Of a stretch of 64,000 nt of DNA, positions 2,718-2,899 are shown one piece after another. Numbering within the stretch: position 1 is the stretch's first letter; the number at the start of each line of letters is the position of its first letter. The stretch comes from Candidatus Woesearchaeota archaeon (lineage in GTDB: Archaea; Nanobdellota; Nanobdellia; Woesearchaeales; UBA11576). A program made the translations under genes and the position numbers. The stretch lies in contig JABJCP010000035.1 in assembly GCA_018668595.1 (NCBI GenBank), positions 216,978 to 280,977 on the forward strand, given 5' to 3'. The notes under the pieces were generated by a model. It saw nothing but the letters and a program-made list of their open reading frames with translations, had not been told where the DNA came from and did not search any database.

Positions 2718-2899
2718 TGCATTACTACCTTGGCATAATGGTTAAATTCGTAGAATTTAATTATTTCAAAGCTTGCTTTGATGAATTCAGCAAGGAGTGA
2801 AACGAGTTGCTGAGTTAGTGCAGAAAAATACCTGATTCATGCAAGGTATTTTTCGATATGTAAAATTCATAGAATTTTATAAATTGCCGTAGTAATGCA
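2718..2899 (+). ncRNA. Dispersed ~180-nt structured element, copy 1 (ncRNA or ssDNA hairpin repeat)
   Basis: Terminal stem tgcattactac/gtagtaatgca encloses five hairpins. Homologous to 38937-39118 and 60941-61120 with compensatory changes. Confidence 0.8.

Follow-up and report, generated by a model that had tools for sequence, protein, structure and literature searches.

Structured intergenic repeats of a Woesearchaeal archaeon and a related core in MITEs of the same order

We describe an intergenic repeat of about 180 nt whose central junction is now a fixture behind some fifty unrelated genes of one archaeal genome. A core of ~100 nt within this repeat, built as a covarying three-way junction, also forms the interior of true MITEs in the same genome and in other genomes of its order. 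Our preferred reading, held with modest confidence, is that the 180-nt element is a transposon-borne structured module that is selected as a co-transcribed 3'-end RNA element. Three of the copies lie in a 64,000-nt window (the whole stretch of DNA that was analyzed), and a sequence-only reading of this window had described them as a family of three that might be a ncRNA, a ribozyme, a 3'-UTR element or a non-autonomous mobile element. Among these alternatives, the link to mobile elements gained the most support. The new element of the present analysis is the ~100-nt covarying core, a single three-way junction common to MITE backbones with different ends.

The window is C22:216978-280977 of the host genome (G000), which has 2.32 Mb in 45 contigs and 30% G+C. 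The genome is archaeal (archaeal SSU model, 1420 bits); McrA was not found in it at 90% completeness. Its relatives within the order range from 0.6 to 2.1 Mb in genome size, and it is on the small size of these genomes that the still unproven designation of the host as DPANN-like is based. The UvrC protein does not narrow this down, since its relatives at 51-59% identity come from Methanosarcinales, Thermoplasmata, Pacearchaeota, Woesearchaeota, Nanoarchaeota and Micrarchaeota. Sequencing runs that contain the window region carry marine or seawater labels.

The repeat family and its fold

The three window copies are real repeats on the + strand, each recognized by a covariance model (R1) that was made from 37 full copies of the host genome. 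Their positions, and the parts of copy 1, are as follows (coordinates of the window).

2718-2899, + strand: copy 1 of the 180-nt structured repeat (model match 2718/2719-2898/2899; 189.1 bits with R1)
2718-2728, + strand: copy 1, 5' strand of P1, partner 2889-2899 (from the fold of copy 1 and the 37-copy alignment)
2729-2731, + strand: copy 1, CUU bulge of 3 nt (conserved column block)
2732-2735, + strand: copy 1, 5' strand of P2, GGCA, partner TGCC at 2885-2888
2737-2816, + strand: copy 1, block of H1, H2 and H3, the last with tandem G.A/A.G; the block is missing from the ~100-nt core form
2823-2854, + strand: copy 1, H4, with a hypervariable, compensated stem
2834-2843, + strand: copy 1, H4 loop GATTCATGCA; the closing pair is the invariant G.A
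2859-2881, + strand: copy 1, H5, with a triloop (from the fold of copy 1 and the alignment)
2885-2899, + strand: copy 1, 3' strand of P2 (TGCC), then 3' strand of P1
38937-39118, + strand: copy 2 of the 180-nt structured repeat (167.4 bits with R1)
60941-61120, + strand: copy 3 of the 180-nt structured repeat (171.1 bits with R1)

Each copy had been said to begin shortly after the stop of a + strand gene, and the distances are confirmed. Copy 1 starts 12 nt past the stop of uvrC (1063-2706; TIGR00194, 494 bits), with uvrB a further 147 nt downstream; copy 2 starts 54-55 nt past the stop of the ORF at 38346-38882, and copy 3 starts 33 nt past that of the ORF at 59960-60907. For copies 2 and 3 alike, the ORF that follows lies on the opposite strand, and no family match was found for the ORFs upstream of these two copies. 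The gene order around copy 1 (uvrC, repeat, co-oriented uvrB; window 1-5023 compared) differs from that in the same-genus genome G001, where uvrB comes after uvrA-uvrC on contig C1 but is convergent with them and set off by a spacer of 57 nt.

The family is considerably larger than three. An HMM from the window copies gave 59 nhmmer matches in the host genome, 38 of them full length, and R1 gave 53 matches, of which ~48 are of the 180-nt type and five, weaker, belong to a shorter relative. The covariance-model search, which the sequence-only reading had proposed as a check, thus raises the family to about fifty copies, and it also detects relatives in the same order: one copy in G001 and three in G007. 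The full copies are diverged, with a mean pairwise identity of 0.69 and a maximum of 0.88 (666 pairs); judged from this low mutual identity, the 180-nt copies are old.

Some copies carry extra modules of ~50 nt, placed exactly in the loop of H4 or of H5:

C44:20742-20794, C22:167167-167219, C14:160471-160523, C39:17445-17496 and C21:179283-179335: 53-nt two-hairpin module in the H4 loop, after GATT
C22:13162-13216, C21:179369-179423 and C19:5008-5047: a different module of ~55 nt in the H5 loop, in three copies

The first hairpin of the 53-nt module covaries between two versions. Three copies share an identical 3' half of ~110 nt and differ in their 5' halves, which indicates that copies exchange blocks and, in consequence, that gene conversion adds to the apparent conservation of the family. 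The genome also holds fragments of the repeat. Solitary 5' fragments, consisting of the 5' strand of P1 and CTTGGCA, lie beside or near full copies at C6:25836, C9:28623, C31:19153, C22:169066, C14:62624 and C30:22461, and 3' fragments occur on their own at C3:10416, C7:10625 and C43:8838. A pattern scan of metagenomes for the 180-nt type returned 20 stretches, with 11 sense matches at 10 loci; as their bit scores equal those of the host copies, they represent the same organism and add no further host. A corresponding scan of viral sequences returned at least 120 stretches, and none of the 80 loci listed passed the model of the core (R2, see below).

The fold of copy 1 reproduces the architecture that the sequence-only reading had drawn from the three copies. 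Its energy is -62.5 kcal/mol, against -34.0 +/- 4.1 kcal/mol in 200 shuffles (z = -6.97), and the antisense strand folds at -49.3 kcal/mol, 13 kcal/mol worse than sense. In the alignment of the 37 full copies, standard pairs make up 94.1% of the 2203 cells. The corresponding values are 80.2% in shuffles, a control that ignores the relatedness of the copies and in which none of the 500 shuffles is as high as the real alignment, and 31-46% with slid partners. Changes on both sides are found in 40 of the 60 pairs and, for P1 alone, in 7 of 10; variation is greatest in the stem of H4, where a single position can show as many as four or five kinds of pair. The compensatory changes of the closing stem, the CTT bulge, the GGCA/TGCC helix and the five hairpins, all proposed from three copies, hold in this larger set.

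The unpaired positions behave differently from these stems. The near-invariant GATTYATGCA loop of H4 persists over the 37 copies as a near-fixed GAUUYAUGCA closed by an invariant G.A, and the CUU bulge is conserved at 90% or more per column in the same copies and is invariant in 15 cores from different genera. The GA..GA cap noted for H3 proves to be a tandem G.A/A.G, present in 32/37 and 33/37 aligned copies, with the helix continuing on both sides. Wobble pairs had been taken to favor folding of the + strand, and the paired cells of the alignment agree: G.U occurs 93 times and A.C 20 times, or 52 versus 20 (p = 2e-4) once two G.U-rich columns are removed. This excess of G.U over A.C points to the sense strand as the folding strand. 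Taken together, the pairing, the conservation across genera and the G.U counts support the earlier suggestion that selection acts on a single-stranded fold with a recognition-like loop.

The core as the interior of MITEs

The ~100-nt core consists of P1, the CUU bulge, P2, H4 with its GAUUYAUGCA loop, and H5, without H1-H3; it is a three-way junction of a closing helix, a long hairpin and a small hairpin. In 15 cores from four genomes, pairing is at 93.8%, versus 69.4% in shuffles, and 22 of 28 pairs show changes on both sides. P2 is always 4 bp in the subfamilies examined (GGCA/UGCC, GGAG/CUCC, GGCG/CGCC and GCAG/CUGC), and ~15 nucleotides that are unpaired or adjacent to the junction are invariant in the 15 cross-genus cores, where they form two clusters. 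Sampled searches with the core model R2, which score the best candidates per genome, found the core in 7 genomes, the host included, among the 151 of the order that were sampled. The counts are at least 26 in G106 (26 candidates scored), 7 in G054, 2 in G095 and 1 each in G144, G163 and G155. In a class-wide sample, the core was absent from all genomes labelled as of the same class and was present only in those of the same order; its distribution is sporadic within this one archaeal order.

Several of these loci deserve a brief description. The core lies beside orthologous ribosomal protein genes in two pairs of genomes from different families: it is divergent from the L3 gene in both G106 and G163, and ~300 nt upstream of S15 in both G106 and G034. 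The two cores of G095 (C8:156227-156328 and 159463-159563) are 3.1 kb apart in opposite orientation, with ordinary genes between them, and combine identical P2-H4 regions with completely different, compensated P1 helices.

The surroundings of the core are those of MITEs, of more than one kind. In G106, a type that we call a is a 134-nt unit with the ends TAGTTAGCGGCA and TAGTCGACGACA. Six of its copies are identical, and a 3-bp TSD is present in 8 of the 9 copies examined, the ninth being a diverged copy that is not judgeable. The genome has 15 end pairs of this type (41 pattern matches, versus 3 in the control). An ORF with an IS630-like HTH at a G106 contig end starts with 22 nt almost identical to those of type a. 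An IS240-type transposase beside one G106 copy was considered as a partner and set aside as a mere neighbor, because the MITE ends before the transposase gene and has its own TSD. The copies of G054 have the same ends as type a and a 3-bp duplication; five of the seven share a deletion in the H4 loop yet occupy different loci, so the loop is dispensable for spread. The MITE arms of G054 and G106 agree at 18/24 and 15/24 positions when flipped, versus 14/24 and 13/24 unflipped, which is only a hint that the core may have been inverted relative to its backbone.

A second kind of backbone has ends unlike those of type a and duplications of ~9 bp. It comprises type b of G106, in which the ~9-bp TSD is clear in 3 of 7 copies, and the copies of G007, two of which show it clearly and the third approximately. 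A 1281-bp element of G007 shares the ends of these copies, is flanked by a 9-bp duplication and contains a fragment of DDE_3 (E = 2.5e-9); the core was not found in the portion of this element that was examined.

The host genome itself carries a 155-nt MITE, in which perfect 16-nt ends, GGCTAATATGAAATCC, surround the ~100-nt core:

C19:46994-47148: 155-nt MITE, 9-bp TSD matching at 8/9
C20:10323-10477: 155-nt MITE, 9-bp TSD matching at 9/9
C33:53008-53162: 155-nt MITE, 9-bp TSD matching at 9/9
C6, C10, C12, C15, C16, C17 (both ends), C28, C29, C33 (both ends), C37, C40 and C41: contig ends inside a repeat with the ends GGCTAATATGAAATCC

A fourth, more diverged MITE of the 155-nt type is on C14, and a longer form, with the 53-nt module in the H4 loop, occupies the 14 contig ends. 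Identical copies at contig ends indicate that the assembly broke there. Three pairs of ends have a 9-bp duplication in common (C6 end and C15 end, C33 end and C17 start, C17 end and C16 start) and are therefore joinable across one copy each.

The core thus forms the inner part of true MITEs, both in the host and in several other genomes of its order, and as such the module spreads as transposon cargo. Like the MITEs derived from DDE elements (IS630-type Nezha, MITEEc1), the core elements of G106, G054, G007 and the host have TIRs, TSDs and identical copies, and they share ends with elements that encode IS630-like HTH or DDE_3 pieces. The target duplication of IS630 is TA; with TSDs of 3 or 9 bp instead, the transposase family is uncertain. 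A further comparison is with SINE-like and other cargo-bearing non-autonomous elements, in which a structured, RNA-like module likewise spreads on a mobile backbone and is later retained by the host. In contrast to SINEs, the backbone here derives from a cut-and-paste DNA transposon rather than a retroelement, and the module matches no known cellular RNA.

For the 180-nt type, the mobile-element option is borne out only in part: its core is a MITE interior, but no TIR, TSD or partner transposase was detected for the type itself. It is short, non-coding and multi-copy, as MITEs are, and P1 is an inverted repeat of 10-11 bp at its termini, but one that covaries between copies. No outer inverted repeat above control was found in its flanks, and TSDs next to P1 were not significant for k = 3-9, where a control fraction of 0.05-0.30 reaches the observed value. 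A scan for 9-mer direct repeats gave the same result as the control in these flanks, which are A-rich and of low complexity. Searches by tblastn of the 90% complete host genome with four ORFs that neighbor G106 copies (the IS240-type DDE transposase, the IS630-like HTH piece and two ORFs without a Pfam match) returned nothing at E <= 1e-3. These negative scans agree with the earlier statement that no transposase or TSD accompanies the window copies.

Empty sites had also been suggested as a place to look. Contigs from four DNA runs over C31:14001-33900 of the host broke at the repeats or were chimeric across them, and none joined cleanly over an element. The 3' region of uvrC in G001 and G008 is without the element; the gene order there differs, so the locus does not read as an exact empty site. 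We infer the mobility of the 180-nt type from its kinship with the MITE core only.

Placement behind genes

Placement was counted per nhmmer match, with two interrupted copies counted twice, on a crude map of 2108 ORFs that covers 88% of the host genome. The upstream ORF is co-oriented in 45 of 49 matches (p = 8e-10), which gives the 3'-UTR option of the sequence-only reading strong statistical backing. The gap from the stop codon to the element has a median of 21 nt and is at most 35 nt in 30 of 45 cases, and many copies start only 3-13 nt past the stop. Scored as orientation of the upstream and downstream ORF, the arrangements are (same, same) 30, (same, opposite) 11, (opposite, opposite) 3 and (opposite, same) 1; the upstream gene is the nearer neighbor in 23 of 30 copies. 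The upstream genes are mutually unrelated and encode, for example, UvrC, pyruvate kinase, adenylosuccinate synthetase, two ABC ATPases, Trm5, AMMECR1 and phosphorylases, while 11 of the 20 upstream proteins scanned had no Pfam match.

The young MITE copies of G106 are placed otherwise. In the 22 of 27 loci with an ORF call, the upstream ORF has the same orientation in 6 and the opposite one in 16. With no sense bias in these young MITEs, a 3'-end role, if real, is specific to the host subfamily.

The sequence around the 180-nt copies is A-rich on the sense strand. Within 80 nt downstream, A5 occurs in 35/38 copies and T5 in 8/38; for comparison, A5 and T5 occur downstream of the stops of 51% and 35%, respectively, of all genes of the genome. 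The oligo-T terminator of archaea does not reliably follow the element in these 38 copies. Upstream, the words ACAAC (11 versus 1.7 expected) and TACAA (13 versus 2.6 expected) are enriched, and an AATACAA leader with a 5' fragment can be made out clearly in just a few of the 37 copies. No promoter-like T/A signal at a fixed distance was found in the 90 nt upstream of these copies. The word TTTTATAAA near the 3' end, considered as an internal promoter, belongs to the covarying stem of H5.

One copy, C28:57168-57346, lies ~350 nt upstream of the only tRNA-splicing-endonuclease-like frame found in the genome (C28:57702-57962), on the same strand. As this concerns one of ~50 copies, the adjacency could be chance.

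Readings of the element

In our preferred reading of the 180-nt element as a co-transcribed 3'-end element, a structured module that is carried within MITEs of at least two backbones in one archaeal order would have given rise to a single enlarged derivative, with three hairpins added, that multiplied long ago in the host genome. The copies that remain are old, sit almost exclusively in sense behind genes and have covarying stems. The compensatory changes and the sense-strand G.U pairs point to selection on each copy to fold as a sense single strand, and the simplest source of such a strand would be RNA read through from the upstream gene. The fold may then give the message of the upstream gene a stable 3' end to which proteins bind, and thereby protect that message or set its limit, which is the weakest step of the proposal. 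Recognition would presumably involve the CUU bulge with the 4-bp P2 and the fixed loop of H4, which look like recognition sites. By analogy with bacterial co-transcribed repeats such as ERIC, a role as 3'-end structure or protein handle would be the most likely one.

The bacterial repeats in question, ERIC, Correia/CREE, RUP and bcr1, are likewise short, non-coding, multi-copy and intergenic. The size variants of ERIC likewise come from insertions at fixed internal sites. The differences are several: ERIC-like repeats are essentially one long imperfect palindrome, whereas the archaeal element is a junction of several branches, in which the loops and a bulge are conserved; a single core is common to MITE backbones of different TIRs and TSD lengths; the window subfamily has no detectable TIR or TSD; and the host is an archaeon. 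Many of the bacterial intergenic repeats are found at gene 3' ends, where they are co-transcribed and adopt an RNA fold, and mRNA stability is altered by some of them (PMC3184786).

Transposon-borne structured repeats that act on mRNA ends are known in bacteria, and we found none described for DPANN-type archaea that would shape mRNA ends. A 2024 census lists MITEs in archaea, a Woesearchaeal genome included; its accessible text gives no structural analysis, and its supplements may list elements of this kind. If the archaeal element acts at the RNA level, it would provide archaea with a new RNA motif that is compact and has clear recognition elements, a natural example of a host that has made regulatory hardware out of transposon cargo, and a marker for transposon traffic within an uncultured lineage.

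A rather unlikely alternative is that the copies are selfish DNA only, that is, decaying MITE relics with no RNA function, whose hairpins are kept by DNA-level processes (templated quasi-palindrome correction, or gene conversion between copies) and whose orientation bias reflects only the purging of harmful insertions. Such an origin fits with the core being demonstrably MITE cargo, with the exchange of blocks among copies and with the continued spread of the loop-defective copies of G054. Palindrome repair would be strand-symmetric, however, and the G.U excess over A.C, in the full and in the trimmed count, is not. Relics would also have to explain why variation across genera falls on the stems and leaves the bulge and the unpaired loops conserved, why 94% of pairs are kept at 69% mean identity, and why copies stay near the upstream stop and, mostly, closer to the upstream gene.

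We regard it as quite improbable that the element is a trans-acting or catalytic RNA that is released from host transcripts, as a self-cleaving ribozyme or a free-standing ncRNA, with the CUU bulge and the GAUUYAUGCA loop as active or binding site. The compact junction with its ~15 invariant nucleotides in two clusters would suit such an RNA, and optional modules of ~50 nt that occur only in hairpin loops are a trait of functional RNAs. A TATA-like word is found at a similar distance upstream of seven G106 copies, a weak point in its favor because the alignment lies in AT-rich DNA. The absence of a conserved promoter signal upstream of the host copies, the many copies that begin so close to a stop codon, and a sporadic, multi-copy distribution unlike that of a housekeeping RNA all speak against such an RNA. 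Known families offer no match either, in line with the sequence-only reading: Rfam 15 gave 0 matches at the gathering threshold over the whole window, noise alone on copy 1 (E >= 1.6), and on the loci of relatives only tRNA, with no ribozyme or ncRNA family even at E up to 1-10.

Equally doubtful is a bolder version, in which the core would be an RNA machine or handle carried by transposons and domesticated by the host. It would then be either a new self-cleaving ribozyme or a specific signal at which an RNA enzyme of the host binds or processes the transcript, recognized by way of the CUU bulge, the 4-bp helix and the GAUUYAUGCA loop, and would punctuate the 3' ends of some fifty messages by cutting, circularising or capping them.

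Very improbable, finally, is an intron-like element whose P1, 3-nt bulge and 4-bp P2 are half of a bulge-helix-bulge, the interior being excised and circularised by the splicing endonuclease. The outer helix, the 3-nt bulge and the exact 4-bp helix of tRNA and rRNA introns and processing stems are indeed there, covarying, in every subfamily, and an unpaired A-rich stretch follows on the 3' strand; but the other 3-nt bulge and the helix that should flank it are missing (columns 18-179 pair in 26/37 copies, without covariation), and an enzyme that reads structure would not require the bulge to have an invariant sequence, as it does here. The likeness is a resemblance only. Spliced-out footprints were not found in the host genome with a search pattern that was too loose to be informative. 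A single tRNA-splicing-endonuclease-like frame, of 196 aa, was found in the host, which we take to suggest a homotetramer that requires the full motif.

Other known RNA classes were considered in turn. ARAGORN found 0 tRNA or tmRNA genes in the window. The element is not a C/D box RNA: a UGAUGA-like word is not conserved, and CUGA is base-paired. The tandem G.A/A.G of H3 has no bulge and is flanked on both sides by covarying Watson-Crick pairs, and is thus not a K-turn or K-loop (L7Ae site). As to 5S rRNA, also a three-way junction of similar size, ordinary 5S genes were found separately in 4 of the 5 genomes tested, and none was found in the host. Between the 16S and 23S rRNA genes of the host (L001 3183-3290, on C26), Rfam reports a tRNA where ARAGORN reports none; its span of 108 nt makes an intron probable.
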